Shown here: positions 38,759 to 60,095 of the stretch, piece after piece
How positions within the stretch are numbered: the first letter of the stretch is position 1
How the letters are laid out: each line of letters opens with the position of its first letter
Source: a virus
Direction: 5' to 3' (one strand)
Virus record (IMG/VR): IMGVR_UViG_3300030419_004857
Location: 32,001-96,000 of that record
DNA: 64,000 nt
The notes under the pieces: model-generated
Seen by the model: the letters and a program-made list of their open reading frames with translations, nothing else
Told to the model about the DNA's origin: nothing
Databases searched by the model: none
Made by a program: the position numbers and the translations under genes

Positions 38759-39543
38759 GATTCTATTTCTATTAACCTCTTTGTCGGTGGAGGAAATTCT
38801 TCTTCGATTTTCTTTAATTCAACAATGATAGAATTCAATACATCTCTCATGTTCTTAGCGGACAAATTTTTGATCAAGTTTTTGACTCGTATAATAGCAA
38901 AACCTCTGTTGATCAACAATCCGGCCTTTTGCGCATCTGCTCGAATGTGTCTTTGCAAATTTGCTTCTCCCCAGATTGGAAGAAAGTGCGCGGGGCCGTC
39001 TATTTCGATTGCCGTTCTTAACACAGGAAGGAAAAGATCCACCTCAAGTTTGTCATTCGCTAGCAGACCTCTCTTGTGAAATATAGTTTCGTAGCCAGCT
39101 TTTGTCAATCCCTCATAGACAAATTTTTCAATTTTGGACCCCTCTTTGCTGGCTTTTCGCACGGCTTCTGCCGCAGCCCGCCTCAAGTTATCCTTTTCCT
39201 GATCGCTCATTTGCTCCCATTGATATTTAGAGAGTTCGGAACGTCTGCCTCTTTCTTCATCGTCCATATTGTCCCAGAAGTTTGACATGCCATTGCTGAT
39301 TGCCACCTTTTCGGACTCTGTTCTCTGCTTTCCTTTAGTTGGATGTTCGTGTCTACCAGTACTAATCGCAACGGTCTGTGCCTGACTCTTAGTTCTTAAA
39401 TCCACTCCGAGAGACTTTAAGGCTCTTCTGATTTTGTTAGGATATGTGCTAAGCTCTTGAGCAATTTCATATGTGCTCTTCTGCTTAGTAATATACTGTT
39501 CGATTAGAAATTCTTTATGCTTCTGTGCAAATCTGCTGCTCAT
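38755..39543 (-). CDS. HTH + NUMOD3-like + Vsr/DUF559-type endonuclease (homing endonuclease-like)
   Basis: STYEIAQEL...IRRAL HTH; KGKQRTESEKVAIS; SKIE...EVDLFLP...AIEIDGPAH...D..K...L...GF.IIRV. Confidence 0.7.
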   Translation of the reverse strand: MSSRFAQKHKEFLIEQYITKQKSTYEIAQELSTYPNKIRRALKSLGVDLRTKSQAQTVAISTGRHEHPTKGKQRTESEKVAISNGMSNFWDNMDDEERGRRSELSKYQWEQMSDQEKDNLRRAAAEAVRKASKEGSKIEKFVYEGLTKAGYETIFHKRGLLANDKLEVDLFLPVLRTAIEIDGPAHFLPIWGEANLQRHIRADAQKAGLLINRGFAIIRVKNLIKNLSAKNMRDVLNSIIVELKKIEEEFPPPTKRLIEIES

Positions 39544-40003
39544 CGGTAATCCTCACTATTTTCTTAAGGTTGAAATTGTTAACTATATGGTCTACTGTTC
39601 TGTTGGCGTAATTTTCGATAGCCAAAGCGTGCTCTTTGCTTCTTGCTATTAATTTTACATCTTTGTTGTTATAGGCTTGTATTAAGTAACTAAAATCTTT
39701 TCCATGTCTACGTGTCCATTCTAAATCCCACACATAAAAGTATTTAGCTTTAGCAAATGTGTTTATCATTGAAAGGGTTGTTGATACCGACGTAGATATT
39801 AAAATTCCATCAAATCCCCAAATCTCGTTTATGTTCATTGTGCCTACTTCAGGCTGAAGTATGGAGGTTGAGGAATTTTCAAAAAAGATCACAAAATCGC
39901 AATCGTCCGAACCTAGATACTCGTTTATATTTTTGATAACATAATACGACAATTGGCTGGCGCTTAAGTCATCAATAATAATTCCAATTTTATTTTCGTG
40001 CAT
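39515..40003 (-). CDS. hypothetical protein, glycosyltransferase N-lobe-like
   Basis: Rossmann-like alternation, KYFYVWDLEW; last gene of the glycosylation cluster. Confidence 0.45.
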   Translation of the reverse strand: MHENKIGIIIDDLSASQLSYYVIKNINEYLGSDDCDFVIFFENSSTSILQPEVGTMNINEIWGFDGILISTSVSTTLSMINTFAKAKYFYVWDLEWTRRHGKDFSYLIQAYNNKDVKLIARSKEHALAIENYANRTVDHIVNNFNLKKIVRITDEQQICTEA

Positions 40004-40943
40004 CTGCTTCCTCTTTGTTTTCTATGTACCAATCGACGGTTTTTTGAATACCGTCTTTGACGGAGAGCGGGTCTATTTGTATAATTTGCTTCATTTTTTC
40101 AACACTTAGAAGCTTTTTCATTTGCCCGTCTGGCTTTTCTGTATTCCACACAACTTCGCCATCATATTGAACCGCTTCAGAAATATATTCTACCAGTTCT
40201 TTTATTGTAATGTCGTGTCCTGTTCCTATATTTAGTAGGTCGCTTTGGTTTTCGTATTTTTGCAAAGCCTGAACTATGGCATCAGCGGCGTCGTCCACGT
40301 ACATAAATTCCCTTTTTGGACTACCCGTCCCCCAACATTCTACCTCCTGCTCTCCCTCCTGTTTGGCCTCTACAAATTTCCTGATCAAAGCACCAACAAC
40401 TTTAGTTCTAAACAAATTAAAAGTGTCGTGTGGTCCATATAAATTAGTGACACATACAGGTACAGAATTGAAGTTGTATTGATCTATGTACGCTTCAGAT
40501 GCTGCCTGTAAAATTCTTTTAGCCACTCCGTGTGCTCGTATAGTCTTATTCGGTTGACCGCTCCAAAAATCTTCTTCATGCAATACTTCCATCCCTGTGT
40601 CTGGATACGCACAGGATGTCATTATAGTCAAAAGCTTCTTTACGTTAGCATACTCACAAGCGTGATGAATATTTAGACCCATGATTGTGTTCGTATAGAG
40701 TATGTCCGCTGGATACGCCCTGTTAAACTCTATTCCACCATTGTAACCGGCGCAATGTATACAGTAATCTGGACGTACCTCCATAAGGTATTCCATCAGG
40801 GAATACAGGTCCAATAGATTAACATGTTCAGATCCTATGGCTACAGGGATAGCTCCCGCTGTTCTCAGGGACTTCCGAAGAGCGCGTCCCAAAAATCCAG
40901 TTCCTCCGGTAACCAGTACCTTTTTTTGATCCAGATTAATCAT
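39990..40943 (-). CDS. fcl: GDP-L-fucose synthase (Fcl/WcaG)-like epimerase/reductase with atypical catalytic residues
   Basis: GGTGFLG, GGIEFN..YPAD, TSCAYP, NLYGPHD.F, WGTGSPKREFMYVDD, KPDGQ.KK; YxxxK appears as HGVAK. Confidence 0.8.
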   Translation of the reverse strand: MINLDQKKVLVTGGTGFLGRALRKSLRTAGAIPVAIGSEHVNLLDLYSLMEYLMEVRPDYCIHCAGYNGGIEFNRAYPADILYTNTIMGLNIHHACEYANVKKLLTIMTSCAYPDTGMEVLHEEDFWSGQPNKTIRAHGVAKRILQAASEAYIDQYNFNSVPVCVTNLYGPHDTFNLFRTKVVGALIRKFVEAKQEGEQEVECWGTGSPKREFMYVDDAADAIVQALQKYENQSDLLNIGTGHDITIKELVEYISEAVQYDGEVVWNTEKPDGQMKKLLSVEKMKQIIQIDPLSVKDGIQKTVDWYIENKEEADARK

Positions 40944-41863
40944 GAATACTGATGCCTTATTTGTAGTAAAGGAGTGACTTTAATTAATTGTTCTATACCT
41001 TGCTCCATGCTTACACTACATTGAAAACCTTCATCGTTGATTTTACTATAATCTACTTCATAATCTCTTTGATCAGAGTCTTCTCCTATCTCTGCGTAGT
41101 GTACGATAGCTCCTGTTTTTTCTCCAATATATTCTGCCAATTCCGCCTTTGTCCAATTTAAATTGTTGTCCCCAACATTGTATACGTTATGTTTCATATT
41201 TTCATAGTTTTCAATGCCATGAATAAAAGCTCTTGACATATCCTTCACATGAATAAAAGTTCTCCTAAAATGAGCCTGAAAAATATTCAGACACTTTTGC
41301 GTCATTGCTTGATACACAAAGTCGTTAACTAAAAGATTAACCCTCATACATGGGCTAACCCCAAAGCCTGTAGCAAATCTATAGGAAATTGTGTTGGGTG
41401 CAGATCTTATTTCCATTTCCGCAGCTTTCTTTGTTTCTCCATACAAAGACACGGCTCTTAACGGAGATTCTTCTGTACAGACCCCATCCACTTTGCCATA
41501 TACGCTTCCAGTAGAAGCAAAAATTAATGGAGTAGACTCATCTCTATGCTCCAATAAATTCAAAGCCCCGTCGATATTCACAGACGTGGCCAAGGAGGGC
41601 TGTTTTGCACAAGCGGGAAAACCAACAAGAGATGCCAAGTGAATAACTCCATCCACTCCATCTAATGCCTTAACGACATTACCCACACTTATCACGTCTC
41701 CGTACATGAATTCAAAGTTAGGATTTTCTACTAACCCTATCAAAGCATCGCATTGCCCCTTATGAAAGTTGTCTAGACAGCGCACTTTGTAGCCAGAATT
41801 CAAAAGATCTCTACAGAGCACATTTCCAACGTATCCGCCGCCACCGGTAACTAGTATTTTCAT
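40940..41863 (-). CDS. NAD-dependent sugar epimerase/dehydratase
   Basis: TGGGGYVG, HLASLVG, ASTGSVYG, SLYGETK, RTFIHVKD. Confidence 0.9.
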   Translation of the reverse strand: MKILVTGGGGYVGNVLCRDLLNSGYKVRCLDNFHKGQCDALIGLVENPNFEFMYGDVISVGNVVKALDGVDGVIHLASLVGFPACAKQPSLATSVNIDGALNLLEHRDESTPLIFASTGSVYGKVDGVCTEESPLRAVSLYGETKKAAEMEIRSAPNTISYRFATGFGVSPCMRVNLLVNDFVYQAMTQKCLNIFQAHFRRTFIHVKDMSRAFIHGIENYENMKHNVYNVGDNNLNWTKAELAEYIGEKTGAIVHYAEIGEDSDQRDYEVDYSKINDEGFQCSVSMEQGIEQLIKVTPLLQIRHQYS

Positions 41864-41873
41864 GATTCATTCC

Positions 41874-42941
41874 TCAAAGTTTTTCTAGTATTCCCAAAAG
41901 TCTCTGGGCTTCGTTTGTAGTAGTTAGTCTGGTTTTCGTGTATTCGTGTAACTGATCGCGTATATCTAAATAGTTTTTTTCATCAAATCTATCAAAGTCA
42001 ATGCGGCCTCTTTCTTCTCCGGGCAATATCATTTTAGATGTTCCTATAAACGAATTCATATGAGGAGCATACGGAATTTTAGTGCCGGGATAAACACCTG
42101 TTATACTCTTAGCTCGCATGCACAGTTCCTTTGGAAATCGTTCTAAAGTTGTTCTGGGGCACAATTCTATGTCTGTAAAGAAAGGAACGCATCCACAGGC
42201 TAGTATTTCATAATGACGCATACAATCCCAGCCTTCGTCTAAAGCGTCTTCTCTCGCCTTTTTGCAGGTAAATGCAAAATAGCTTTTTTGGTAATCTGCG
42301 TAGTATTCTTTTTCGTTTTCATAAATGTATGATTTCTCATGGGGGTCGTCGCAGTCAGCAAAGGCTGGTATAAGGGGTGCAAAATCAAACGACTTGTCCA
42401 TTGGTTCACAAATTTTTTCTTTGGGAATGGAAAATGAGATTGAAAATGCGTGTGGGATTAATTCTTCGGACAGTTCTCTTTTAAAGTAGGTTACTTTTTT
42501 AGATATACTTGTATTTATATGTTTTCTCTCTCGTCCGTCAAGAATTGCAATTTTATTTTTAGGATAAATTTCCAGTAGATCGTCTAGCATCTCGTGGATA
42601 TGTTCGGCGTTATTGTCTATTGCGTCGGATTGACTGTGGTGAAGTGGGCATATGATATAGTCGTAGTATTTATTTTTTACCTTGCTGAAAAGATCGCTTC
42701 TGTCAATGTCTAAATCAGGCAATAGCCCATATGTGGTAAATCCTTTGCCAGACAAATCTTTAAACATCTCAGGCTTTTCTTCAAAGTCTCTCTTATACAA
42801 ATGCCACAATCTGGGTGCGTCAACAACATCTTCTCCCAAAAATGATCTTAGGCCATGAAAAATGGTATCGCAAAGATAATCCCCAACCTCAGACGGGTGT
42901 AAGTCAGACGTATTCATAATTGGTAGATATAATATCTTCAT
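41874..42941 (-). CDS. putative GT-B glycosyltransferase (exostosin/GT47-like C-terminal motif)
   Basis: YQKSYFAF...GWDCMRHYEILACGCVPF resembles the R..EA...GC.PV nucleotide-sugar-binding motif; cluster context. Confidence 0.55.
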   Translation of the reverse strand: MKILYLPIMNTSDLHPSEVGDYLCDTIFHGLRSFLGEDVVDAPRLWHLYKRDFEEKPEMFKDLSGKGFTTYGLLPDLDIDRSDLFSKVKNKYYDYIICPLHHSQSDAIDNNAEHIHEMLDDLLEIYPKNKIAILDGRERKHINTSISKKVTYFKRELSEELIPHAFSISFSIPKEKICEPMDKSFDFAPLIPAFADCDDPHEKSYIYENEKEYYADYQKSYFAFTCKKAREDALDEGWDCMRHYEILACGCVPFFTDIELCPRTTLERFPKELCMRAKSITGVYPGTKIPYAPHMNSFIGTSKMILPGEERGRIDFDRFDEKNYLDIRDQLHEYTKTRLTTTNEAQRLLGILEKL

Positions 42942-43894
42942 TAAATCATCTCGCTTACAGCCTTTTTAATTGCATCGATAGATTTAGGATACTTCATTTC
43001 AAACCCAGTCTCCTTAAGCTTACTGTTATCAACCGATACAAGTTTATTGTCACCCTTCCAGTTGGCCTTTTCCCCTAACCACTCAATAGGCTTATGAATA
43101 TTACACACGTCCATTACGGCGTGTGCTATCTCTTCTACACTAGCTGTGTCATCAGAGACAACATTATAGACTCCAGACATGTCTGAAGTTGCGGCAAACA
43201 CAAAAGCATTGACAACGTCTGAAATATGACAAAACGGCTTGATTGATCCGGGTTGATCGCCCAGTACTTGTAGCGATTTTTCGTCCTCGTTTAACTTTCT
43301 TATAAAGTCCTTAAGCACGCCATGAGTAACTCCGTCCCCAACGGTAGCGCATAAACGTAAAGAGACCCCGTTTACCCTGTCCATATTATGATAAATATTC
43401 AGTAGACTTTCACAGGCTACCTTGCTAGCTCCATATACAGATGTTGGAACTGTTTTGTCGTCTTCATAGTATTTTCCAGTTTCAAAAAATTCCTCAAACC
43501 AGTCTCCGTAAACCACCACGGAAGAAGCTAGAACAATTCTACACCCCTCTGGAGCGTAATGTATAACCTTTTGGGTTCCAACAATATTGTCCATCACTAC
43601 TTTGTGCGGGTTAATTTCATCCAGTTTGCTGGTGGGGTATCCAGCAAGGTGAAAAATAACATCAGGTTTGTGTTCGGAGCATACTTTGTCAAAGATGTAA
43701 TAATCTGGCGATTCAATGTTTGACTCACCCAGATCACAAGCGTAATATTTTATGGGTTCTCCGAGATAGTCTTTAAAATTAATAGCTGGCCGTCTTCCCA
43801 TACAAATCAAATCGAACTTGTCTCGTTCGTATGTTAGCCTCTCGGTTAATTTTCTTCCTATGAAACCGCTGGCTCCAGTAAGTAATACTTTCAT
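42941..43894 (-). CDS. NAD-dependent epimerase (UDP-glucose 4-epimerase-like)
   Basis: TGASGFIG, FHLAG, ASSVVVYG, SVYGASK, HGVLKDFIRKL, W.GD. Confidence 0.85.
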   Translation of the reverse strand: MKVLLTGASGFIGRKLTERLTYERDKFDLICMGRRPAINFKDYLGEPIKYYACDLGESNIESPDYYIFDKVCSEHKPDVIFHLAGYPTSKLDEINPHKVVMDNIVGTQKVIHYAPEGCRIVLASSVVVYGDWFEEFFETGKYYEDDKTVPTSVYGASKVACESLLNIYHNMDRVNGVSLRLCATVGDGVTHGVLKDFIRKLNEDEKSLQVLGDQPGSIKPFCHISDVVNAFVFAATSDMSGVYNVVSDDTASVEEIAHAVMDVCNIHKPIEWLGEKANWKGDNKLVSVDNSKLKETGFEMKYPKSIDAIKKAVSEMI

Positions 43895-44934
43895 TTTATC
43901 ATGCCTTTGTATAGTGTTAAGCAGTTGTCTTTTTCATTTTTCATTCCAAGTTCTTCAAATATTTTTGCGACTCTGTGAAAGTATGTATGTCTATCTAGGA
44001 CGCAATTATAACCCTTGGTAATATGTTTCTCTCTTTTTTCTGGATGCTTGATGTAGTGCTCTATCTTATTTTTAAAATCCATTGGGCTTTTTGCAAAAAC
44101 AATTTCGCCATTTGGAAAAATTTCTTCTGCCATAGACTTAACGTAGTCTGAAATACAAAATCCCTGACTCATTAATATTTTAAAAGGTCTTTCAATAACA
44201 TCGTACCCAAAATCTTGCGAGTGTGGTTCACTTACATTTGGACAAATCTTAGCGGATCTAAAAACGTGTTTCACCTCATCGTTGTTGATACTCCCTAAGT
44301 ATTGTACTACTGGCCAGTCAGAATTGCCAAATATTTTTATATTATATTTTCCAACAGGCTTGCACAATGGAATCAAATACTTATCAATGGATTTTGCTTT
44401 GTACTCCCAGTACCCTCCAACAAAAGATAGGTCACTCTTGTATTCCGGCTTTTCCTCGCCGTTAGCATAGTCGAATACATCCGCCGCATGAATCAGGGAG
44501 ACCGGTTTAACTCCTATATCTTTCCATTTATTGTGAGTAACTTTCATCCACTTGGCTGTGTAGTGATTGTGAACAAAATCAGGCTTGCCAGTCTCCTCCT
44601 TTAGTTTTTCAACCCATTTTATTTCATCTTCTCGGGCAGACAAAACTGGATACTTATCTTTATCTATGTCTTTCTGCATATCTCCCCAATCGGACGCCCG
44701 CATCACTACCTTTAGATGAGGTCTCTCTTTTATACACGTAAATAGCGCCCTGTCTAGGTTATAGGTTTGTCCTAGAAAGATATCTGGCTCCATTTCATCA
44801 AAAGCGTCAAACGCAGGAACTTCATGCACGTCCCATACCCCCACGTCATGACCCATTGCGTTAAAAACCCTAGCCCACCCCATTCTGATGTAGTAATGTG
44901 CGTGAGGTCCATCACTAGATATCATTATTTTCAT
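43891..44934 (-). CDS. CgeB-like glycosyltransferase (Glyco_trans_1_2)
   Basis: DLSFVGG, IKIFG..W, SAKICPN, ERPFKI...GF.ISD, VLDRHTYFHRV. Confidence 0.8.
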   Translation of the reverse strand: MKIMISSDGPHAHYYIRMGWARVFNAMGHDVGVWDVHEVPAFDAFDEMEPDIFLGQTYNLDRALFTCIKERPHLKVVMRASDWGDMQKDIDKDKYPVLSAREDEIKWVEKLKEETGKPDFVHNHYTAKWMKVTHNKWKDIGVKPVSLIHAADVFDYANGEEKPEYKSDLSFVGGYWEYKAKSIDKYLIPLCKPVGKYNIKIFGNSDWPVVQYLGSINNDEVKHVFRSAKICPNVSEPHSQDFGYDVIERPFKILMSQGFCISDYVKSMAEEIFPNGEIVFAKSPMDFKNKIEHYIKHPEKREKHITKGYNCVLDRHTYFHRVAKIFEELGMKNEKDNCLTLYKGMIK

Positions 44935-45650
44935 GTTTTTATATCCCTCAAGGAGTCCACTTCTTGTATCTTCATTCCCTTCGGCTCTACTGTCTCAATT
45001 TCAAAACCTTCGTCTATAATGATATTAAACAATTCAAAGGGATACATTTTGTTTCTTTTTCTATTGGAGCATAGGGCTTTAAACAGTGATAAAACCTCGC
45101 CCTCCAGATAGATAATCTGACCCCACTTAATGTCTAAGCCGTAAGCGAAATTAGTAACCAAGTTATCAACCACGGTGACCCCCACCTCTTCATTCTTAAA
45201 ACTGTTTTTAGAATCTACCACCACGCACGAATTACCATCGGTCAGGTTGGTGATTGATTTTGTATTAAAAATAAGATCGCCGTAGATTATTAATACTCTT
45301 GTATTAGTTATACTGTTTAATGCGAGCCTTAAACTTTCTACAACATTAGTTTCAGAATAGAATTGATTTTCTATAATTCTAACGCCCTTGGGAATGGTTT
45401 TAATTACCCTGTCTGCCTCAAAACCAACCACTGTGGTGATCTCGGAATTTGGATAGACTTTTTTAACATTTTTAATTATGTTTTCAATTATTGTCTGAGT
45501 TGTAGAAATTGGAAGTAGGCATTTAGGACCGTAGGATTTCATCCTATGTCCGGTTCCAGCCGCAGGAATAATAACAGATAAATCATTATTCTCGATTGTT
45601 GTGGATGGTCGTTTTTTGACCGCTGTTGTATATCTGTTATATTTTTTCAT
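44931..45650 (-). CDS. sugar or choline-phosphate nucleotidyltransferase (LicC-like)
   Basis: IIPAAGTGHRM...PKCLL, VVGF, N..Y..TN, YGDLIF, EVD. Confidence 0.8.
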   Translation of the reverse strand: MKKYNRYTTAVKKRPSTTIENNDLSVIIPAAGTGHRMKSYGPKCLLPISTTQTIIENIIKNVKKVYPNSEITTVVGFEADRVIKTIPKGVRIIENQFYSETNVVESLRLALNSITNTRVLIIYGDLIFNTKSITNLTDGNSCVVVDSKNSFKNEEVGVTVVDNLVTNFAYGLDIKWGQIIYLEGEVLSLFKALCSNRKRNKMYPFELFNIIIDEGFEIETVEPKGMKIQEVDSLRDIKT

Positions 45651-46449
45651 TGGCTCTAGCAGTTAGCTTGTGTCTAATTTTTGCCCAATTTTCCTCCCAG
45701 ACATCCCTATTCACCACGAAGCTAGAGTTATCTCCCGTTACTCGAACAAGAGTTAAGGATTCTGGAATATGGACTATCATGTATTTTTCACTTATTCTAG
45801 TCCACAAGTCGTAATCTTCGCAAACCCTCATAGTCTTGTCATAGTATCCGGTGTTTTCTTTTACGTCTATCAAGGCTTGCTTATTAATTATCGATCCGCT
45901 ATGAACAATACACTCTTCTAGCAGCCTTCTTCTGCTAAAAGGCTCCTTAAATTCTCTTATCATCTTTCCTGTGTTTATTGTGTATGTGTCATAATCACCA
46001 TAAACGGCTCCAATACGATCCATATCTTCCATCATGATATTGACACATTTTGAAATTTTATTCGGCTTCATTTCATCATCTGAATCTAAGACCGCATATA
46101 TGTCCGTAGACTCCAATGTGTATTTTATTCCTTCGTTTCTAGCATCACTAGGTCCACCGTTTGGTTTTTTAACAGCGACCAAGCCTCTTTTTTTGACCTT
46201 GCCTCTATGATTGATGGTGTCGGTTAATACTTCAATGTTTTCGTGTGCTTTTCTAGAAACAGTTTGTCCAAAGATACCTTCAATTTTATCCCACGATCCA
46301 TCTGTAGAACCGTCGTCTATGATACATGCGCACAAAGGCCCATCGTAATCTTGCTTGATGGCACTATTGTAAGCTTTTATGATATAATCCTGATCGTTAT
46401 AGTTAGCGATCAGTACTGTTACTCTTGGTAAAGACATCTGATAATTCAT
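45637..46449 (-). CDS. glycosyltransferase family 2
   Basis: VTVLIANYN, IIDDGSTD, NGGPSDARN.G, LDSDD, CEDYDLW.R. Confidence 0.9.
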   Translation of the reverse strand: MNYQMSLPRVTVLIANYNDQDYIIKAYNSAIKQDYDGPLCACIIDDGSTDGSWDKIEGIFGQTVSRKAHENIEVLTDTINHRGKVKKRGLVAVKKPNGGPSDARNEGIKYTLESTDIYAVLDSDDEMKPNKISKCVNIMMEDMDRIGAVYGDYDTYTINTGKMIREFKEPFSRRRLLEECIVHSGSIINKQALIDVKENTGYYDKTMRVCEDYDLWTRISEKYMIVHIPESLTLVRVTGDNSSFVVNRDVWEENWAKIRHKLTARANEKI

Positions 46450-47251
46450 CCCATGTATACACTAGGCTGGCTTTTGACCCGTCTTCGTTTTGAATATTTT
46501 TAATTTTTAATTCTAGAGTGTCTTCTAAATTTCCGTGAAGATGCTTATGTAAAACGCTGTGAACAGTCATCATACTTACTTCATCTTTGCTTTTCACCAT
46601 GCCGATATTTAGTAACTGCGTGTTAATGGCATGACTTAAAATTTCGTCCATATTATGGATAATTGTGTCCCCAGCTTTGAGCACGCAATAAAATCCATTT
46701 TTTACATTCAAAAATCCAATATCTATGCGATCAAAACTAGTAGATGTTTCCGTTGTTACCTTCATGATTTTATAATCTGTACCTTCAGAAAAAATATCCT
46801 GCGCCTCTTGAAGCAATTCTAAGGGTGACAACTGAGCGTTTGGTAGATTATTGACTACAATGAAATAGCCCGGAGGGTATTTTAATCCGTCATGAATACT
46901 TTTTACCGTTTTGGATATGTCTGCAAAGATTTCGTCTTTATCTTTAGGTTCTTCAATTAGAATCATGAACCCAATTTTGGGAATGGTCTCTTTTTCGTAT
47001 ACTTTGACTAAGTCCTTTCCAGAGTGAAGCTCCGACCATGATTCCAGTCTATATCCAGTACACACTCCATCAATAACATAAAATTCTTTGTCATGGTCTT
47101 CTGCTTCTATAACTTCAATATCATTTTTTGTAAAGTGTTCTATGCGATTTAAATCGCATGATACTTGTGTTTTTCCAATGTAATGAGCAAAGGCACATTT
47201 TTTGCAACTTGTCGAAAGCGTATTTACTTGATTAAATGCGTCGTAGGTCAT
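46403..47251 (-). CDS. hypothetical protein (N-terminal Cys motif, possibly degenerate GT-A fold)
   Basis: CKKC.F...C...C; overlaps both neighbours in the cluster. Confidence 0.5.
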   Translation of the reverse strand: MTYDAFNQVNTLSTSCKKCAFAHYIGKTQVSCDLNRIEHFTKNDIEVIEAEDHDKEFYVIDGVCTGYRLESWSELHSGKDLVKVYEKETIPKIGFMILIEEPKDKDEIFADISKTVKSIHDGLKYPPGYFIVVNNLPNAQLSPLELLQEAQDIFSEGTDYKIMKVTTETSTSFDRIDIGFLNVKNGFYCVLKAGDTIIHNMDEILSHAINTQLLNIGMVKSKDEVSMMTVHSVLHKHLHGNLEDTLELKIKNIQNEDGSKASLVYTWDELSDVFTKSNSTDR

Positions 47252-47721
47252 GGTCTTTCGCCTTCTATTACTAGATTGAATCCATCAGTTCTCTTTTTTA
47301 AGATTTTTACACCACAAGATTCCAATTTTTTTTGCAAGTCTTCAATGGTGGCATGACTCATTAACACGTCCCAAGGCCCAGAAAACGTGCCATGAGTAAG
47401 CAGGTTAAATTCTACAATGTTAATTTCCTTATAGTAAAACATTTTACTGACCTGATGAGCGTCTATACCGCCGATTACGATTTTTCCACCATGTCTTAAT
47501 TTTTTCACCCAGTGTAACAAAGTCTGATCGGCCTCATTAGCCTCCAGATAACCAAGAACGTTTTCAGCTATCAATTCGGTGCATTCGGAATCCAGAACTA
47601 ATTCATCTAGATTTCGTATATCGGCCTTAACGCTACCCTCGACATTCCCGCCCGTAATGGGGTCTATATTGAGATAGCCCGGCTTAACCAGTTCCTTACC
47701 CACGCTGATATGTATTTTCAT
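47248..47721 (-). CDS. short SAM-dependent methyltransferase-like protein
   Basis: GYLNID...ADIRNL...VLGYL...W.KKLRHGGKIVI; motif I is degenerate. Confidence 0.6.
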   Translation of the reverse strand: MKIHISVGKELVKPGYLNIDPITGGNVEGSVKADIRNLDELVLDSECTELIAENVLGYLEANEADQTLLHWVKKLRHGGKIVIGGIDAHQVSKMFYYKEINIVEFNLLTHGTFSGPWDVLMSHATIEDLQKKLESCGVKILKKRTDGFNLVIEGERP

Positions 47722-47722
47722 G

Positions 47723-48742
47723 TCATCCTCTAAAACAAATTTGAGAAGCTGTATTAAATATATTATCCCAGTTTCTTATAAATTGATTCTGTGAGAAACG
47801 CCCTTCAATAGTTTTCCTAGCTTCGGCTCCCAATTTTTGAGATAATTCTTCATCGTTTAACAAATCTATTAAATATTGTTCCAACTCTTTTTCATCATTG
47901 CTGATGAACCCATTGATTCCATTTTCTATTATTTCAGGTATCATACATGTGGAAGTAGAGACCACTGCACACCCACATGCCATAGCTTCAAGCAACGCTG
48001 TAGGTACAGGAGATATGGTAGACGTGTTTAAAAAGATTCTGCTCGTTTGGTAATTTTTGACAAGCTCCTCTGTATTTTTTGCTGGTTCAGATAGACCCGG
48101 AGTATCGCCCACAACAAATGTTGGCAATTTGTTAGCAACCCTCTGCCATATGTTAAAACCGCAGCACCAATCTCTGTTAATCCAATCGTTTACAACTGAC
48201 AAGATATGATCTTCTCTTTCAACTTCTGCATCTGGTTTAAACAATTCACAATCTACACCATGATGGATTACTGCTGTGTCGCCATTATTTTGCCACTTCC
48301 ATTTGTCGATACTAAACTCAGAGATGAAAACATTTATGTCTCCGCGCATATTCTGTAGTGATTGTAGAATTTCGGCTGACCAGTTGGGAACTGGCAGCGT
48401 ATGTTCAAGACTAACAAGTGGTAGGTGTAAATTTTTTGAAAATTGGTTTGCTATTTGATACTGCCCAAACTTATTTTGAGACAATACTAGATCTAAATCA
48501 AGATGCAAAGGTATCTGATCTTCTTTTAGGTCTTTATTGAGTAATTGATAGTTTTCGGGAATTTTGGCATAAGATTCGTTCCAGTCTTTTATACCGTCTG
48601 CTCTATAAGAGTAGAAATTGTGCCCCGTTCTGCATAAAAGACTTTCGTATCTTTCGTGTGTAGGAAAGGTTAAAATGTTGAGCGGTTCAGATATACGTCT
48701 GACAGAGGCTCTCATTATTGATGATACTGGACTAGTTGGCAT
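47723..48742 (-). CDS. glycosyltransferase family 4
   Basis: VIHHGVD...F.P; FLNTS...P.ALLEAMACGCAVVS; IENG.NG. Confidence 0.9.
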   Translation of the reverse strand: MPTSPVSSIMRASVRRISEPLNILTFPTHERYESLLCRTGHNFYSYRADGIKDWNESYAKIPENYQLLNKDLKEDQIPLHLDLDLVLSQNKFGQYQIANQFSKNLHLPLVSLEHTLPVPNWSAEILQSLQNMRGDINVFISEFSIDKWKWQNNGDTAVIHHGVDCELFKPDAEVEREDHILSVVNDWINRDWCCGFNIWQRVANKLPTFVVGDTPGLSEPAKNTEELVKNYQTSRIFLNTSTISPVPTALLEAMACGCAVVSTSTCMIPEIIENGINGFISNDEKELEQYLIDLLNDEELSQKLGAEARKTIEGRFSQNQFIRNWDNIFNTASQICFRG

Positions 48743-49865
48743 TTAACGCCTCTTTTATCAGGGTTCCTATTGCCTCATGAGAGTGGTTATACGCAGACTT
48801 CAACCCCTGACTCTTCATCTCTTTATACGGTTCTTTGTTTTCATCACGAGACATGTTATATATTCTTCTCATCTCTTTCATAAGCTTCAATATATCTATC
48901 GACACCCATCTTTCATAACCAGTATATAATTCTACAAATGTGTCAATCATTCCACTTACCGGCTCTACCCTGCCATCGACTAAAACGCCGCCACCATTAT
49001 TTAAAAAGTCTGCCATTCCCCCGACGTTTGTACAAATGGGAGTTTTTCCAAATCCCATAGCATCAAAAGCTGGAATACACCACGCCTCTCCGTAACTAGG
49101 CATTACAAAACAATCGCATCCAGAATGAAGACGATACAGATCCTCTTGACTAAGAAAGTCGGTAATTATTAGATCTTCTTTGTAGTCGTCAAGTGATGGA
49201 TATAGCTTTAAATCAGATTTTACCTGATCACAAAGTGATTTAACTTCTCCAGCACATTCATCTGGAGAAAGACCATACTTGTTTGTTTTTATAACCATCG
49301 ATACTGGTTCGGTAGCATGAAACTCTAGATGAAACGCTTTGATCAAAGCCTCTAGATTTTTCCTTTTGTTTAGCTCTCCGATAAAATAAAAAATGAATGA
49401 GTCCTGTGAGTTTGGTAATTCAAACTTCTTATAGCCACGTTCAAATTTAGAAAAGTCTGTGGCGTGTGGGATAATTTTGATTGGTACATTAACCCCGCAA
49501 TTCTGCGAAGAAGAAGCCATCTCGTTATTAATAACCCAAGCCTCGTCCATAAGGTTTATCTTTTCCACCCAAGGCGGTTTTACAAACAAGTCTGTTTCCG
49601 TAGCGTATAAGGCGATATTTTTTTCGAATCTTCCATTGTAATCCATCATATGGGGCAGAACATGCTGGATACATACGTCACAACCTCTACTATCTCTACC
49701 CTCTAGTTCAGTTAAACGTGCAGGAATTTCTGGATTTCTGACATTTAATTTAACCGGTCTTGGAACAACGTTTATTCCAACCGAGTCCATAGCAAGGATA
49801 TAATCCGTAGCGGCATTGCCCCATCCGGTTCCATCTCTATAACATCCTATATATAATACTTTCAT
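48732..49865 (-). CDS. glycosyltransferase family 4
   Basis: IIPH, FIG....RKN, DCFVMPSYGEAWCIPAFDAM..GK..I.T..GG..DF. Confidence 0.9.
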   Translation of the reverse strand: MKVLYIGCYRDGTGWGNAATDYILAMDSVGINVVPRPVKLNVRNPEIPARLTELEGRDSRGCDVCIQHVLPHMMDYNGRFEKNIALYATETDLFVKPPWVEKINLMDEAWVINNEMASSSQNCGVNVPIKIIPHATDFSKFERGYKKFELPNSQDSFIFYFIGELNKRKNLEALIKAFHLEFHATEPVSMVIKTNKYGLSPDECAGEVKSLCDQVKSDLKLYPSLDDYKEDLIITDFLSQEDLYRLHSGCDCFVMPSYGEAWCIPAFDAMGFGKTPICTNVGGMADFLNNGGGVLVDGRVEPVSGMIDTFVELYTGYERWVSIDILKLMKEMRRIYNMSRDENKEPYKEMKSQGLKSAYNHSHEAIGTLIKEALNAN

Positions 49866-51511
49866 CTGCCAACCCTGTTATATCTTTGTGTTTCCCATTT
49901 GTTTCTATGATTACAGAGTTGTGCAGCCATATTGTAAGCCTTCTCTTTGTCAAAAGATTCATATTGAGGCTTAACAAATTGATAAGAATCTTCATTTACA
50001 TAAGTATCTCCGGTTCCTTGTATGAACATCCCGTAATTTAAGTCTCGTATCATTCTAGCTTCCATATAACTGTTTAGTTTCTCTGGGTCGCCTAGAACAT
50101 TGATAATTAACCATTGTACGTATTCTCGGGGGCTTAGGTTTTCGGGAACCTGCGTTAAGGGCTGGTGGATTACAGGTGGGGACAGCCATGTTTCCTCTGA
50201 TGGGGGAACAATCACGCTATCAAAATAATCTTCCCACTTTTTAGCGGTGGCGTCCCATTGGTAATGTTTGTCAAAATTTGATTTGGTTTTATCTGATAAT
50301 TTCTTTCTATCTTGTTCTGATAGATTAAAAAACTCGTTCATTTTAGCGGCGGTATAATCATTGTCTGGCACAGCCCTGTTGCACCCAGTTTCCAATTCTT
50401 GGTACACAGCCTTCACTTTTAGAGGAATCCCCTCCAGTTTACGCACCACGCTGGACATAGCGGAATAATCAATGCTCATAACCGGAATAGCACAAGCCGC
50501 AGCTTCTACTTGGGGTAAACCAAACCCCTCACTGTTTGCGTATTGGATATATAAGTCGAATGTATTTGTTATCTTGGAGAGATCTTGGTAAGATACCCCT
50601 TTTTGCACGTTGGACAATCCTGCGGCATATGAATTACAACGAACGCATTTGGCTCTAGCGTCCGAAAAGAACATCGGAAAAACATGTTCGCAGTGCTGAC
50701 AAACATAAGTAAATATAACTTTGCTACTGAGTCCATACCTATTTATTAACTTTGGTATATCCCATCCCAAGTCTGGGTAACTGGTGTGGCAGTAAAGGTA
50801 AACGTCGGATCTACCAGAAACGTTTAAGAATTTTCTAAATGCCTCAAATAGATCTGGAAATAGTTTCCGTCTCTGGTTTCTCATTATTGTTCCCACAATT
50901 TGCATAGATGGATCAAAACCCATACTTATCTTGTGGTTAATTTTATTTTCCACCGGGGTATATGCGGCGTTGGCGGAAGGAGGGGCAGAACCCAGACATT
51001 TGATTACATTATTGCTTTCTCGTTTAAGTAGGTCTCGGCCCCAATCTGAATAGGCAAAAACTGCATCGGCATTAGAGAAGGTAGATAGCCACTGTTCGTT
51101 TTGTGGTTCAGCGTCTACTGTTGGCATAATTGCCCAATTGAAAAGTCTTCTAAATGGAGACCTTTCTTGGTAATCTATCATCCAAAAATCTCTGATATCA
51201 AAAACGATATCAGGAAGAAAATCTAGAAGGACATTTTCAAACTGCCATTCACCAAACTGATTTGTTGGAACAGAGTTGTATGTATCAACTTCCTGTTTGT
51301 TTGTTAAGTCTGGGAGATTACCATAAAAACCCCAAGGGATTTCTTTAGCTCTTGGGTCCGTATCGTCTCCATAACTAGCAAATTCAGCCAGATCATACTT
51401 TCCAGTATTAAAAAGCCTTCTCATTACTTCTCTACCGTAAGTTGCATATCCAGTATTAAGATATGTAGCTTCGCAACAAAGAAGAATCCTTTTTTTTCTA
51501 TTCATTGGCAT
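49862..51511 (-). CDS. glycosyltransferase family 4 with CxxC-CxxC insert
   Basis: TGYATYG, RNQRRK, EGFGLPQVEAAAC; internal CQHC...CVRC. Confidence 0.9.
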   Translation of the reverse strand: MPMNRKKRILLCCEATYLNTGYATYGREVMRRLFNTGKYDLAEFASYGDDTDPRAKEIPWGFYGNLPDLTNKQEVDTYNSVPTNQFGEWQFENVLLDFLPDIVFDIRDFWMIDYQERSPFRRLFNWAIMPTVDAEPQNEQWLSTFSNADAVFAYSDWGRDLLKRESNNVIKCLGSAPPSANAAYTPVENKINHKISMGFDPSMQIVGTIMRNQRRKLFPDLFEAFRKFLNVSGRSDVYLYCHTSYPDLGWDIPKLINRYGLSSKVIFTYVCQHCEHVFPMFFSDARAKCVRCNSYAAGLSNVQKGVSYQDLSKITNTFDLYIQYANSEGFGLPQVEAAACAIPVMSIDYSAMSSVVRKLEGIPLKVKAVYQELETGCNRAVPDNDYTAAKMNEFFNLSEQDRKKLSDKTKSNFDKHYQWDATAKKWEDYFDSVIVPPSEETWLSPPVIHQPLTQVPENLSPREYVQWLIINVLGDPEKLNSYMEARMIRDLNYGMFIQGTGDTYVNEDSYQFVKPQYESFDKEKAYNMAAQLCNHRNKWETQRYNRVGR

Positions 51512-52010
51512 TTCGCAATGTTTGAATTATGCTTTGTAATTTTAAATCAACAACCCGTTTAGAACAGTGTAATTCTTCTGCGATTTCTTTGTTGGTGTGG
51601 TTTTGAAGTTTCAGTTGGAGAATAAATTTCTCGTTTGCTGTGAGATAGTCTGGGATAAATTCCATGATTTTATCTTTGTCAAAAAACTTTTGATCTCCAG
51701 CCGCAGAATCTAACAGATTGGTATCGTATATAATCTTTGGCTTTTTTCTTTTGGGGTCTTTTCTTTTGTAGTTTAGAAATGCATTTTTTATGCACAAAGT
51801 GGCAAAAGTGGAGAACTTAGATTTTGTTTCATCATATTTTCTTATGGCTTTCAATAGAGCTATTAGTCCAACCTGAATGAAATCTTCAAGGTTAGATTTA
51901 TTGTCGTCACCTAAAAAAGAAAGAGCCTGAGAAACGACTAGTCCATAATGTTCATGAACCAGTTCGTTCTCAAGCCCTTCTCCGTTTTTTATTATCACTT
52001 CATCATTCAT
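51498..52010 (-). CDS. sigma-70 family RNA polymerase sigma factor (compact, regions 2 and 4)
   Basis: GLVVSQA...EDFIQVGLIALLKAIRKYD...KFSTFATLCI; HTNKEIAEEL HTH. Start probably at the second Met (52010), overlapping the ssb stop. Confidence 0.9.
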   Translation of the reverse strand: MNDEVIIKNGEGLENELVHEHYGLVVSQALSFLGDDNKSNLEDFIQVGLIALLKAIRKYDETKSKFSTFATLCIKNAFLNYKRKDPKRKKPKIIYDTNLLDSAAGDQKFFDKDKIMEFIPDYLTANEKFILQLKLQNHTNKEIAEELHCSKRVVDLKLQSIIQTLRNANE

Positions 52011-52407
52011 CTGTTGTGTCTGACACGGCATCTAGAACAGTTTCTTTTGAATCTTCTGTCTTGGTGGTGTCACCATAATTATTATTGAATAACTTAAATT
52101 CCTTAACACGGAATCTAATTTGGAACTTCTTGTTGCCCTCTTTATCTACCCAAGAATTATTGCGCGCAGAAGCAACTAAATCAACAATGTCACCCTTCTT
52201 GCAGTATTTATTTAATGTGGTGGCTCCTGAATCCCATGCTTCAAAATCGAGATAGCTTACTGTCTTCTTTTTGTCACCATTCTTTTCTCGTCTGTATTCA
52301 CTCACTGCGAGAGTGAAAGTAAGAAGATCCGTGTTTTCTAGTTTAATAAGCTTAGGATCACCAGCAAGACGACCAATAAATCTACAGTAGTTAGAAATAG
52401 TATTCAT
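52003..52407 (-). CDS. ssb: single-stranded DNA-binding protein
   Basis: GRLAGDP, FTLAV, FEAWD..A......KKGD, W.DKEG; acidic tail. Confidence 0.92.
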   Translation of the reverse strand: MNTISNYCRFIGRLAGDPKLIKLENTDLLTFTLAVSEYRREKNGDKKKTVSYLDFEAWDSGATTLNKYCKKGDIVDLVASARNNSWVDKEGNKKFQIRFRVKEFKLFNNNYGDTTKTEDSKETVLDAVSDTTDE

Positions 52408-56862: not shown

Positions 56863-57567
56863 CTATATTCCGTCTATTCGATTTCTGTGTTTAGCAATCT
56901 CGTATTGCATAAGAATTCCACCGCGCATGCCATCACTATCCTCTACGAAACTATGTGTTGACCTCTGAATTGCTAGACTGGGCACACAGATATAGAAATT
57001 ATATTGTCTAGCCATCTTCGTTCCTAAAATCCAATCTATGGGACCGATTGGATCGTATGTTACGAGCTTCTCAATTATATTACGTTTGAGAATACATGCA
57101 TGAAAACCCGCATGTCTCTGTGATTGCTCGATCTTGAACTTTTCATACATCTCATAATGCGGCGGGTTTCCACCGTGATACGAACCCAGCCACAAACCGT
57201 CCCATTCTTTGTATTCTATTTGTTGAAGATTTTCTACAAAATCATTGGTGAAGTAAGCGTCGTCTTCTAGAAAGAGCGCATTACTCACCCCTTCTTCCAG
57301 AACAATGTTCATCATTTCTTTATGACATTTCCATGCGTTGTACGCATTGGGACGGTTTACCCATGAATTATGACCAGATGTTAACGGTTTCTCGTTATTA
57401 TCCACCTTGTCATAGACGTGTCCATCTAATGATTGCCCATCGCCAGCGATAAACTTGTGCATGGGTCTACCGAATATGCTCTTTACCTGTTCGTCCAATT
57501 CGGACCAGAGCTTCACCCTCTTATCTAAACACAAACAAATAATCTTATCTATATCTGATATGTTCAT
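56863..57567 (-). CDS. glycosyltransferase family 25-like
   Basis: CLCLDKR, H......LFLEDD, WDGLWLG, PIDW, P.LAIQ...S. Start probably at Met 57567 (ATGA overlap). Confidence 0.75.
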   Translation of the reverse strand: MNISDIDKIICLCLDKRVKLWSELDEQVKSIFGRPMHKFIAGDGQSLDGHVYDKVDNNEKPLTSGHNSWVNRPNAYNAWKCHKEMMNIVLEEGVSNALFLEDDAYFTNDFVENLQQIEYKEWDGLWLGSYHGGNPPHYEMYEKFKIEQSQRHAGFHACILKRNIIEKLVTYDPIGPIDWILGTKMARQYNFYICVPSLAIQRSTHSFVEDSDGMRGGILMQYEIAKHRNRIDGI

Positions 57568-58241
57568 CTTATGTAGATCCCATCTCCCCAAGAATGATGC
57601 GCCATGTAAGTGTCTACTCTGTCAAATCCGTATCCCGATAAAAATTCGTCAATCTCGCTCGCTTTAGCTCCTCCTACATAAAGCTCCTCAAAGGCCAACT
57701 CTGTGTAGATAACTTTACAAGAACCTGACTCTAGATATTTTTTCATGCCTTCCAGAGCCTTCATTTCTGCACCCTGCAAATCCATATTCAGGAATTCAAA
57801 GTCTTTTGGATTGAATTCATGCCTCTTGAAGAGGGTGTCCAGTGTAATTGTGTTAACTTTAACCTGAGAAACTTCATCAATATGAGGGTAATATTCTTTG
57901 TGTTTTCCCAAAGAAAGAAGTGATGAACAGCCGCAGTTACCCTGTTCAGGAAAATTATGATAATTTTGACGATCATCAGGATAAATAATTTTAAAATCGA
58001 CCGTGCTATCATCTACATCCGAAATAGCATAATCAAATACATTCTGAAAATTCTCGTCAAAATCATATAAATTTTTACGAATGATAGGTAGCAAGTCTGG
58101 ATTTGCCTCAACCCAAATTACACGATCTATTTCGCAAGCTCTGTACTCATACCTTTCTTCTGCCTTACAGGCTCCTAAATGAATAGCCCCTTTAATGTTT
58201 AGGTTGTAACGACTAATTATGCTTGCTAATGATTCTATCAT
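57564..58241 (-). CDS. FkbM family methyltransferase
   Basis: IHLGA, WVEANP, SSLL, TITLD, FLNMDLQGAE..ALEG, LY.G, WGDGIY. Start probably at Met 58241. Confidence 0.9.
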   Translation of the reverse strand: MIESLASIISRYNLNIKGAIHLGACKAEERYEYRACEIDRVIWVEANPDLLPIIRKNLYDFDENFQNVFDYAISDVDDSTVDFKIIYPDDRQNYHNFPEQGNCGCSSLLSLGKHKEYYPHIDEVSQVKVNTITLDTLFKRHEFNPKDFEFLNMDLQGAEMKALEGMKKYLESGSCKVIYTELAFEELYVGGAKASEIDEFLSGYGFDRVDTYMAHHSWGDGIYIR

Positions 58242-58242
58242 T

Positions 58243-59247: not shown

Positions 59248-59734
59248 TTAATTCATTTAACTCACTTATTTTAAGGTTGAAACAGTCCGCTTTTACTACA
59301 AAATTATTTGATGGATCTACGTCCCCTTTATTAAGAAAGGTTGCTTTGGAGAAATATTCATCTCTACCCATGACTCCTAAGATCCAAGCAGTTTTCCATT
59401 CATTGGGTTTACTTTTGTGCCATTCTATACGCACAAAAATGTAAGCATCGCATCTTTGGTGGTCGCTAGTTTTGGCTATTGAACACTCATAGAACGGCTT
59501 TGGTGGAGATGTGCAGCGTTTTGTTTTCACGTCGATCTTAAGGTCGCCCTTTATTATATCATAGTCGTATTTATCTACAATTTGCCCATTAATTAAATTG
59601 TTAACAACTTCTTCCCCCAGAAACCCCGCGATGTTTCCACGACCTCTAGTGATAGAATTATTAATTACACCCATAGATTTTGAGCGTTCTTTAGCCTTCT
59701 TAAGCATCTCCTTGGTAATTTCAACTTCAAACAT
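59222..59734 (-). CDS. hypothetical protein, PD-(D/E)xK-like
   Basis: G.LGE...YD......IDVKT motif. Confidence 0.6.
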   Translation of the reverse strand: MFEVEITKEMLKKAKERSKSMGVINNSITRGRGNIAGFLGEEVVNNLINGQIVDKYDYDIIKGDLKIDVKTKRCTSPPKPFYECSIAKTSDHQRCDAYIFVRIEWHKSKPNEWKTAWILGVMGRDEYFSKATFLNKGDVDPSNNFVVKADCFNLKISELNELNDSLLSQK

Positions 59735-60095
59735 TTAATTCTCTCCCGTATTCATCTTCCAATCTTACAATATCTTCTTCGGAACATTTTCCAAACTGCA
59801 TCTCGTAAGCAACAATGTCATCGTTTCCATTATTTATCAGTTGATGAGATTCATTCGTCTTTATATGAAAATATGATCCGGGTCCAACCTTCCATACAGA
59901 GGCATTAAGTCTCATTGCACCCCTCCCAGACACCACATACCAAAATTCCTCTCGTTTGTGGTGAAGCTGGTATGATATTGACTGTCCGGGTTGCACAACA
60001 ATTTTTTTAAAAACAACTTGGTCGTTTCTAAAATAATCCTTATAATATCCCCAAGGCTTACCTACTTGGTCACTTTTGCTTTCAGCCATCCCCAC
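59727..60095 (-). CDS. mannose-6-phosphate isomerase type II C-terminal cupin
   Basis: KPWG.Y, K.IVV.PGQSISYQLH.KREE.W.VV.G, H.L.N, EMQ.G...EEDIVRLED.YGR. Confidence 0.9.
   Translation of the reverse strand: MGMAESKSDQVGKPWGYYKDYFRNDQVVFKKIVVQPGQSISYQLHHKREEFWYVVSGRGAMRLNASVWKVGPGSYFHIKTNESHQLINNGNDDIVAYEMQFGKCSEEDIVRLEDEYGRELNV

Follow-up and report, generated by a model that had tools for sequence, protein, structure and literature searches.

To our knowledge, the only virions for which sugar coats have so far been demonstrated are those of giant viruses and of some actinobacteriophages. The glycosyltransferases (GTs) of chloroviruses are soluble and early-expressed, viral GMD and GMER as well as sugar methylation have been described, and the glycogenes of mimiviruses form clade-specific clusters (PMC9614988). 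Glycans on the capsid and the tail tube of mycobacteriophages are known as well (Freeman et al. 2023, as cited in PMC12619734). The marine cyanomyoviruses P-SSM2, S-SCSM1 and S-SCSM2R carry clusters for 'LPS / cell-wall synthesis and modification' (LPS, lipopolysaccharide; PMC12801897), and large phage glycan clusters with unknown target, published for these cyanomyoviruses (PMC12801897), are also mentioned for other aquatic phages (PMC12619734). Here we describe a further such locus: 13 genes at positions 39515-51511 of a stretch of 64,000 nucleotides (the window), which comprises bases 32001-96000 of a single viral contig of 161,265 bp (IMG/VR record IMGVR_UViG_3300030419_004857; GC content 42%, CheckV completeness 100%). 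It stems from an uncultured marine phage of a siphovirus-type family characterised by a tape measure of 2908 amino acids (aa) and a split DnaE. Judged from sequence matches and fold models, the cluster appears to form the bulk of a glycan assembly line which the phage itself encodes and which works independently of membranes.

All 13 open reading frames (ORFs) lie on the minus strand, and each overlaps its neighbour or is at most 10 bases away from it. The first-pass annotation of this DNA had spoken of 12 co-oriented genes; the co-orientation holds, the count does not, as the ORF listing gives 13. Gene assignments are based on sequence searches against Pfam, NCBIfam, PHROG and PDB, and on AF2 fold models compared by Foldseek and VIA-align. 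In the direction of transcription, the genes (window coordinates) are:

49862..51511, minus strand: GT549, GT4-type glycosyltransferase of the GT-B class, 549 aa (PF00534, phrog_2170); first gene of the cluster, family-wide core
48732..49865, minus strand: GT377, GT4-type glycosyltransferase (PF00534, 2e-18; 59-65% identity in relatives)
47723..48742, minus strand: GT339, GT4-type glycosyltransferase (PF00534, 8e-18; 64-70% identity in relatives)
47248..47721, minus strand: u157, 157 aa, no Pfam family, faint resemblance to a class-I methyltransferase (C-terminal half of the latter)
46403..47251, minus strand: u282, 282 aa, virus-only family (Atlas clusters all viral), no Pfam or PDB match
45637..46449, minus strand: GT2-family glycosyltransferase, GT-A (PF00535, 5.7e-18; DSDDE motif)
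44931..45650, minus strand: putative sugar- or polyol-phosphate nucleotidyltransferase (PF12804 NTP_transf_3, 1.2e-11), matching the N-terminal domain of GlmU only
43891..44934, minus strand: CgeB-type Glyco_trans_1_2 protein (PF13524, 2.2e-22; 61-67% identity in relatives)
42941..43894, minus strand: SDR317, extended short-chain dehydrogenase/reductase (SDR), nucleoside-diphosphate (NDP)-sugar epimerase or reductase (PF01370, 2.6e-34; top PDB match GalE-1 3ehe, 1e-31)
41874..42941, minus strand: U355, glycosyltransferase of GT-B fold, 355 aa, without Pfam family, closing the conserved core
40940..41863, minus strand: SDR307, NDP-sugar dehydrogenase/epimerase (phmmer against PDB 6vo6, 3.2e-71, full length)
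39990..40943, minus strand: Fcl-like GDP-4-keto-sugar 3,5-epimerase/4-reductase of the GDP-L-fucose synthase family (E. coli GDP-fucose synthetase 1bsv, 3e-56)
39515..40003, minus strand: u162, 162 aa, no family match; syntenic homologues (49-58% identity) accompany SDR307 and Fcl in relatives

Every one of these genes has syntenic homologues (30-71% identity) in related viral contigs, more than 25 in number, and the cluster is therefore no fortuitous succession of ORFs. At least six marine metagenome studies, 2014-2025, contain near-identical copies (98-99%) in which the cluster is collinear. No strain-level cassette swap was seen in the contigs of four marine runs, all of them collinear and 98-99% identical; joints listed among these contigs have short sides and are probably spurious.

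Loci anchored on the C-terminal half of DnaE, on the sigma factor and on U355 were compared. In relatives, a fixed core consists of GT549, GT377, GT339, u157, u282, GT2, the nucleotidyltransferase, the CgeB-like gene, an SDR and U355, to which a GT25-like gene is joined (28-35% identical to the one of our phage, directly after U355 within the cluster, 17 related loci). Thereafter comes a variable block of 0-12 unrelated genes, followed by SDR307, Fcl, u162 and three small conserved genes. GT549 is kept behind ssb in all 15 DnaE-C-anchored loci which reach far enough, the sigma gene lying between both in closer relatives, and is 64-71% identical across relatives whose DnaE C-half shows 59-64% identity. 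In distant relatives (DnaE 41-45%), GT549 (34-43%) and a second GT have been kept, the remainder being replaced. The first GT is conserved like DnaE and is a core gene of the family.

The cluster contains six to eight GTs, six of them supported, and with more elsewhere in the genome a multi-sugar product, as proposed in the first-pass annotation, is well founded. Its labels of three GT4, one GT2 and one CgeB-like enzyme agree with PF00534, PF00535 and PF13524: GT549, GT377 and GT339 score 34, 66.9 and 65 bits against a PF00534 cut-off of 26.4, and residues D122, D124 and D125 of the GT2 are invariant in the family alignment. The model of GT549 (AF2 pLDDT 88.8) has a GT-B fold and matches GT4 structures with E values of 1e-14 to 1e-18; the top Foldseek match, B736L of chlorovirus NY-2A (3oy2; E 3.8e-18, TMt 0.79), leads MshA, BshA and sucrose-phosphate synthase by four orders of magnitude. 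GT549 carries a C-terminal helical extension of ~120 aa and a zinc-ribbon type insert (CxxC-x14-CxxC, residues 271-292), which is kept within the phage family, some members having lost its cysteines; homologues in a second lineage (476-503 aa) are without it. Among cultured phages, the sole match of GT549 (21% identity) is a GT of Tetrasphaera phage TJE1, whose gene lies upstream of the terminase in a small sugar cassette, as yet uncharacterised. Two matches were rejected as pointers to the glycan target. That to Gtf1/GtfA (E 0.019) does not count as evidence for a protein O-glycosyltransferase, because the alignment spans the common nucleotide-binding motif only. B736L is also a top HHpred match of T4 a-gt and of RB69 ORF003c, a putative DNA arabinosyltransferase (PMC6024577), so the likeness to it is uninformative on the target.

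U355 has no Pfam, NCBIfam or PHROG family match, and PDB sequence searches with U355, u282 and u157 gave nothing usable. Its model (AF2 pLDDT 92.9, from an alignment of 32 sequences) shows a GT-B glycosyltransferase fold, and its C-terminal domain bears an invariant R-H-Y-E ... P motif. Many GT4-like enzymes match it equally well (VIA Z 12-14, about 45 chains, all tied), amongst them methylmannose-polysaccharide mannosyltransferase, BshA, tetrahydrobiopterin glucosyltransferase, T4 alpha-glucosyltransferase and Gtf3/GtfC. The gene had been called exostosin-like, and the fold class was rightly recognised; the specificity was not, given the missing Pfam match and the EXT1/2 score (Z 11.8, rmsd 5.8), which stays below that of the GT4-like chains, so exostosin is not the best match. 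A weak phytanoyl-CoA dioxygenase match (E 0.45) was dismissed after the GT-B fold had been found. A homologue search gave 598 sequences, and the family occurs in 484 IMG/VR viral loci and in 347 bacterial loci (including SAR11, Acidobacteriota, Mucilaginibacter and Planctomycetota). In cultured phages, tblastn of U355 found no homologue in any record of the collection, and megablast of the 12-kb cluster gave no match. Each annotated viral lineage has its U355 homologue inside long co-oriented runs with GT, SDR, Gmd or methyltransferase homologues, and FkbM homologues adjoin U355 in other phage lineages. One such run comprises seven genes, among them a GT and a U355 homologue, and separates gp47 (SbcD) from gp46 (SbcC) in a 217-kb T4-like contig with terminal repeats (L073, 2349-18986); a further GT is located between gp46 and the gp43 polymerase, and the record is without ThyA homologue or Tet_JBP. 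Another lineage has its U355-family cluster right behind a PD-(D/E)XK nuclease.

None of the 13 cluster proteins contains a hydrophobic segment (defined as a 19-mer at >=1.6 on the KD scale), and no ORF anywhere in the CheckV-100% genome has more than two. There is no GtrA/GtrB/GtrC-like membrane protein as in Gtr-type serotype conversion, nor a polytopic membrane ORF as in Wzx/Wzy or ABC loci, although host-encoded versions of the latter could substitute. For comparison, 80 viral and 80 bacterial U355-family loci were inspected 8-10 kb around the gene for ORFs with at least six hydrophobic segments: such ORFs were found in none of the viral but in 33 of the bacterial loci. Phages took the soluble part of bacterial polysaccharide loci, consistently leaving the export part behind, as this contrast demonstrates. 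The earlier statements that flippase, Wzy, undecaprenyl-phosphate transferase and membrane proteins are missing, and that the pathway is soluble, thereby hold not only for the cluster but also for the whole genome and for the 80 related viral loci.

The remaining cluster genes concern mainly sugar-nucleotide synthesis; the first-pass annotation had named two NDP-sugar epimerases, an Fcl homologue and a nucleotidyltransferase, all of which were recovered with Pfam, NCBIfam and PDB, the first three as SDRs. The Fcl-like protein scores 253.5 bits with NF047922, under the equivalog cut-off of 500, and is thus a family member whose product sugar is not certain. SDR307 resembles 6vo6, which we take to be C. 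jejuni Cj1427, a GDP-heptose C4-dehydrogenase. Cj1427 has a cupin epimerase and an Fcl-like C4-reductase as partners (PMC10680097). Further pathway genes are dispersed. A Gmd gene (GDP-mannose 4,6-dehydratase; PF16363, 374.7 bits) is located outside the window, at genome positions 12918-14012 just upstream of the terminase. It adjoins an ornithine cyclodeaminase gene (genome 12918-14926 for both), and a MotA/ExbB-like membrane protein and a second sigma factor are encoded in the same block. Since Gmd, the Fcl-like protein, the 6vo6-like SDR, a cupin and a nucleotidyltransferase are all encoded, the probable products are GDP-linked hexoses or heptoses, either 6-deoxy or C3/C5-epimerised. A Methyltransf_24 gene (genome 31275-31862) lies within the structural module, just before window base 1; it holds the same place in two relatives, and one relative (L194) has a paralogue inside its glycan cluster, flanked by the 6vo6-like SDR and Fcl. 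Together with an FkbM gene of the replication module it fits O-methylated sugars, which is in line with the earlier suggestion of a methylated glycan. The suggestion of sulfated sugars is not supported, as no sulfotransferase was found genome-wide with PF13469 or PF00685.

Two small cluster proteins are more elusive. The gene described as methyltransferase-like, u157, owes this name only to a weak match with the C-terminal half of a methyltransferase: against PDB, its family profile hits 3hnr, a 'probable methyltransferase' (E 0.024). Its neighbour u282 evolves fast (24-38% identity in relatives whose adjacent genes are 55-70% identical) and has four invariant N-terminal Cys residues. An hhalign comparison with the family of the neighbouring GT2 is weak (E 0.0018, probability 15%) and collinear, with the DxD motif absent, and the core of u282 is possibly GT-A-like.

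Turning to the surroundings, the cluster represents the 3' tail of a long predicted operon with DnaB, primase, deoxynucleoside monophosphate (dNMP) kinase, cupin, nuclease, FkbM, GT25-like gene, split DnaE with exonuclease, ssb and sigma factor, and from this layout it is predicted to be co-transcribed behind dnaE-ssb-sigma. Neighbouring features in the window are:

51498..52031, minus strand: sigma-70-type factor (PF04542, 1.6e-15), the last 14 bases of which are also the first of GT549
56863..57591, minus strand: GT25-like gene, weak (PF01755, E 0.0057, under the cut-off)
57564..58265, minus strand: FkbM-family methyltransferase (PF05050, 1.4e-19), replication module
59727..60095, minus strand: small cupin of the mannose-6-phosphate isomerase (PMI) C-terminal type (PF01050, 4e-19)
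60062-60826: dNMP kinase of the T4-gp1-type DNMK family, near the cluster
37521-39543, minus strand: three small genes of 262, 300 and 115 aa with weak DUF559/HNH, SAP/HeH and zinc-ribbon signals

The position of ssb and sigma directly upstream, already noted earlier, is confirmed, and the sigma-GT549 junction is present in most relatives. At the other end, the same three small genes end the operon in every relative, even in distant ones whose glycan block differs, and beyond them lie convergent tail-fibre genes; the strand of the cluster is opposite to that of the structural genes. A promoter and terminator scan was indistinguishable from shuffled sequence. Of the glycan genes announced elsewhere in the window, FkbM (PF05050) and the PMI cupin (PF01050) are clear, the GT25 is a sub-threshold match only (E 0.006). 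A second glycan cluster at genome positions 116857-121882 (84857-89882 on the window scale) contains a GT4 of 362 aa, a GT of 317 aa (genome 119971-120924, matching Exostosin/RXYLT1), an SDR epimerase of 307 aa and three unknown genes, two of which have homologues in the variable block of relatives. In total, glycan-related genes account for ~23 of the 188 ORFs of at least 70 aa genome-wide, about an eighth. Genome positions 122504-123742 encode a DUF1501 protein (246 bits), a domain typical of Planctomycetes. The ThyX gene is found at genome 149861-150631, far from the replication module; in three relatives (L017, L022 and L024, ~4900-5560) it lies between dNMP kinase and PD-(D/E)XK nuclease, a slot which here holds the cupin and an unknown gene and which seems to exchange accessory genes.

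As to the acceptor, we tentatively favour virion proteins of the phage itself, one or several, with a confidence somewhat below an even chance. The enzymes would act sequentially in the cytoplasm and yield a methylated hetero-oligosaccharide with 6-deoxy or epimerised sugars: GT549, conserved throughout the family, would begin the glycan on an acceptor that is itself conserved, the remaining GTs of the conserved core would lengthen it, and the variable distal block (0-12 genes in relatives) would diversify the outer glycan between phage lineages, so that released particles may bear a lineage-specific coat comparable to those of chloroviruses, mimiviruses and some actinobacteriophages. This is favoured because the machinery is soluble, the starter GT is conserved and the outer block is lineage-variable beside hypervariable tail-fibre genes, and further because of the Methyltransf_24 gene in the late/structural operon and the giant-virus precedent. 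A virion-protein target had been put forward in the first-pass annotation, and it stands as the best single reading, with DNA disfavoured (see below), a methyltransferase in the late operon and a core conserved like the polymerase.

Several observations speak against a virion acceptor. No Ser/Thr-rich tail or stalk was found when the C-terminal 30 residues of all structural-module ORFs were scanned, although the capsid, portal and tail-tube genes are unnamed by PHROGs and Pfam, and the scan could therefore not single them out. The cluster is situated in a replication operon and not among the structural genes, and two other phage lineages likewise carry U355-family clusters amid replication/recombination genes. 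Bacterial relatives of U355 reside in export-linked polysaccharide loci, so the enzymes may still use lipid-linked acceptors. Finally, the folds of GT549 and U355 match GT4-like enzymes in general, among which are glycosyltransferases for DNA, small molecules, lipids and proteins. The Ser/Thr scan gave modest enrichment only, in three proteins after the presumed capsid gene. The corresponding genes (206, 688 and 766 aa; genome 24794-29849) contain moderately Ser/Thr-rich stretches, and the 206- and 688-aa proteins share a C-terminal motif, ..LYHQxESIT..; possibly, the three are head decoration or fibre proteins and candidate glycan acceptors. A protein of 760 aa (window 2168-4450, plus strand) ends in a Peptidase_S74 domain (endosialidase-type intramolecular chaperone), i.e. 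it is a self-cleaving fibre or spike. It counts among the structural proteins of the phage, as do those encoded at genome 24794-29849 and 22799-23806.

The alternative which survives best, unlikely as we consider it, is a remodelling of the host envelope: the soluble GTs would work from the cytoplasmic side of the membrane on intermediates of the host (undecaprenyl-linked or lipid A-core), with the host providing priming transferase, flippase or ABC exporter and ligase, and the altered surface polysaccharide could, for example, block superinfection or the sticking of progeny to debris. The missing membrane genes are compatible with this, since GTs for O-antigen and capsule are mostly soluble or peripheral, and the bacterial relatives of U355 adjoin polytopic membrane proteins in the 33 of 80 loci mentioned above. 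SDR307 and the adjacent Fcl-like gene resemble the C4-dehydrogenase/C4-reductase pair of the C. jejuni capsule heptose pathway (6vo6 being presumably Cj1427), the cluster is putatively expressed among early or middle genes, and the published cyanophage clusters have been so interpreted (PMC12801897). Host-strain-specific accessory genes would, however, not be conserved like the polymerase across a family, as the first GTs are. Exporter and priming enzyme are absent from all 80 viral loci, which stem from several lineages, and yet a new unit of six to eight sugars would need to fit the host flippase; moreover, the late/structural operon retains a methyltransferase of glycan type.

Improbable in our view is another cytoplasmic acceptor, that is, a free oligosaccharide, a glycolipid, a glycosylated small molecule or a host protein modified in the course of takeover; candidate products would include a compatible solute and, by analogy to the methylmannose polysaccharides of mycobacteria, a methylated polysaccharide. 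All proteins are soluble, methyltransferases are encoded, and MshA, BshA, sucrose-phosphate synthase, tetrahydrobiopterin glucosyltransferase and the methylmannose-polysaccharide mannosyltransferase 7qsg are among the best structural relatives. A lineage-variable distal block nevertheless better fits a recognised surface structure than a metabolite, and we know of no precedent for devoting about 13% of phage genes to a free or cytoplasmic glycan product.

DNA as the target is highly unlikely. GT549 and the following GTs would then put an oligosaccharide on a modified base, as in T4, RB69/DLP3, RL38J1 and the MT/TET-dependent clusters. That no base-modifying enzyme is encoded in the window, as stated earlier, is borne out and extends to the complete genome: six-frame searches revealed no ThyA homologue (PF00303), Tet_JBP (PF12851) or C5-methylase (PF00145), TGT is absent as well, and only ThyX is present. 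PF00303 and PF12851 are absent also from five further records of phages with a U355 cluster, of which two are complete T4-like genomes. The sole dioxygenase is of the 2OG-Fe type PF10014 (142 bits, genome 145890-146510), which we take to be a family of free amino-acid hydroxylases. In addition, palindromes are the five most under-represented of all 4096 hexamers in the whole genome and make up 14 of the lowest 20. CCCGGG, CTGCAG, GGATCC, GCCGGC, GACGTC, CAGCTG, GGTACC and CGGCCG do not occur at all against 13-22 expected each (~21 for each of the first three), TCCGGA occurs once against 22 expected, and the tetramers GGCC, CGCG, GTAC and ACGT are avoided too. The same avoidance is seen in 252 kb of relatives, whereas a 50-kb piece of phage T4, whose DNA carries glucosylated hydroxymethylcytosine (glucosyl-hmC), has only 3 palindromes among its lowest 20. 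Such avoidance implies that the DNA is exposed to restriction enzymes, with heavy type II restriction pressure from the host. Acceptor-forming enzymes missing and restriction sites strongly avoided, DNA glycosylation is unlikely, and six to eight GTs with methyltransferases and a hypervariable block go far beyond any known DNA glycan.

On the other side of the balance stand the embedding of the cluster in a replication operon, with GT549, its zinc-ribbon insert included, translationally coupled to sigma and ssb, the location of U355-family clusters among replication/recombination genes in three lineages (gp47-gp46 or behind a PD-(D/E)XK nuclease, for example) and T4 alpha-glucosyltransferase among the tied top structural matches of U355. 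The nearby T4-gp1-type dNMP kinase could be added, although kinases of the DNMK family also occur in phages with unmodified DNA. The cluster GTs are all acidic, which seemed to disfavour DNA, but T4 a-gt is near neutral too, and the comparison of isoelectric points was dropped as not discriminating. Phage DNA tri-saccharides made with phage-encoded sugar-nucleotide pathways do exist (PMC13326640; bioRxiv 10.1101/2023.12.21.572611), and the earlier argument that DNA glucosylation needs only one or two GTs is thereby out of date. A glycan on phage DNA or a replication-linked nucleoprotein, attached by acceptor chemistry outside the known hydroxymethyl, hydroxy and deaza routes, would explain both the U355-family clusters in replication/recombination modules of three unrelated lineages and the zinc ribbon of GT549, and is the least probable of all these proposals.

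If the favoured reading of a virion coat is true, an abundant family of ocean phages carries a lineage-variable sugar coat as a core trait, which would bear on how particles stick to marine gels, escape grazers or enzymes and recognise hosts. Two groups of enzymes with putative activities deserve interest in any case, the GT-B family without Pfam model in hundreds of viral and bacterial loci, and the zinc-ribbon GT4 conserved like the polymerase.

Compared with the systems described so far, the cluster resembles virion glycosylation in giant viruses (the capsid of chloroviruses PBCV-1/NY-2A, mimiviruses): these share soluble viral GTs without endoplasmic reticulum (ER) or membrane steps, a viral GDP-mannose dehydratase with an Fcl-type epimerase/reductase, sugar methyltransferases, clade-varying clusters and early GT expression. 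A further link is the top structural match of GT549, chlorovirus B736L, itself without proven acceptor. In contrast to them, we deal with a tailed bacterial phage, known from its genes alone, and with one tight operon behind replication genes. Like the cyanomyovirus clusters, ours belongs to a marine phage, comprises many GTs (up to 13 in cyanomyoviruses) and NDP-sugar epimerases and lacks exporters; those are, however, T4-like myoviruses whose genes are treated as accessory host-surface modifiers, whereas here the phage is siphovirus-type and the first GTs belong to the core and occupy a constant position. Virion O-glycosylation of mycobacteriophages, as far as the literature cited above summarises it, similarly relies on soluble phage GTs, sometimes with a methyltransferase, which would decorate capsid and tail proteins inside the cell. 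The cassettes summarised there count 1-4 genes beside the structural genes and target the C-terminal tails of capsid and tail-tube subunits, unlike the at least 13 genes in a replication operon described here; the cluster follows dnaE-ssb-sigma, and only Methyltransf_24 is placed in the structural module. Phage DNA glycosylation (T4 a-gt/b-gt, arabinosyl-5hoC of RB69/DLP3, RL38J1, MT/5mYOX-GT) has in common with our locus generic GT4-like GT-B matches, phage sugar-nucleotide synthesis, a dNMP kinase and a location at replication genes, but differs by its thymidylate-synthase homologue, TET/JBP or C5-methylase, by the restriction-site avoidance seen here and by the far greater number of transferases, and the methyltransferases, in our phage. 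The spore-crust genes of B. subtilis (cgeB, sps operon) encode a CgeB-type GT, a GT2, an SDR and a nucleotidyltransferase which place a glycan on a protein shell in the mother-cell cytoplasm without export; this is a cellular differentiation system, and its sole link to the cluster is the Pfam family PF13524 of one gene. The locus thus adds a further example together with constraints, a new principle not yet being established; new with respect to all these systems are the core-plus-variable architecture of the family, the unnamed GT-B family with its contrast between viral and bacterial context, the dispersed pathway genes and the restriction-avoidance argument against a DNA target.

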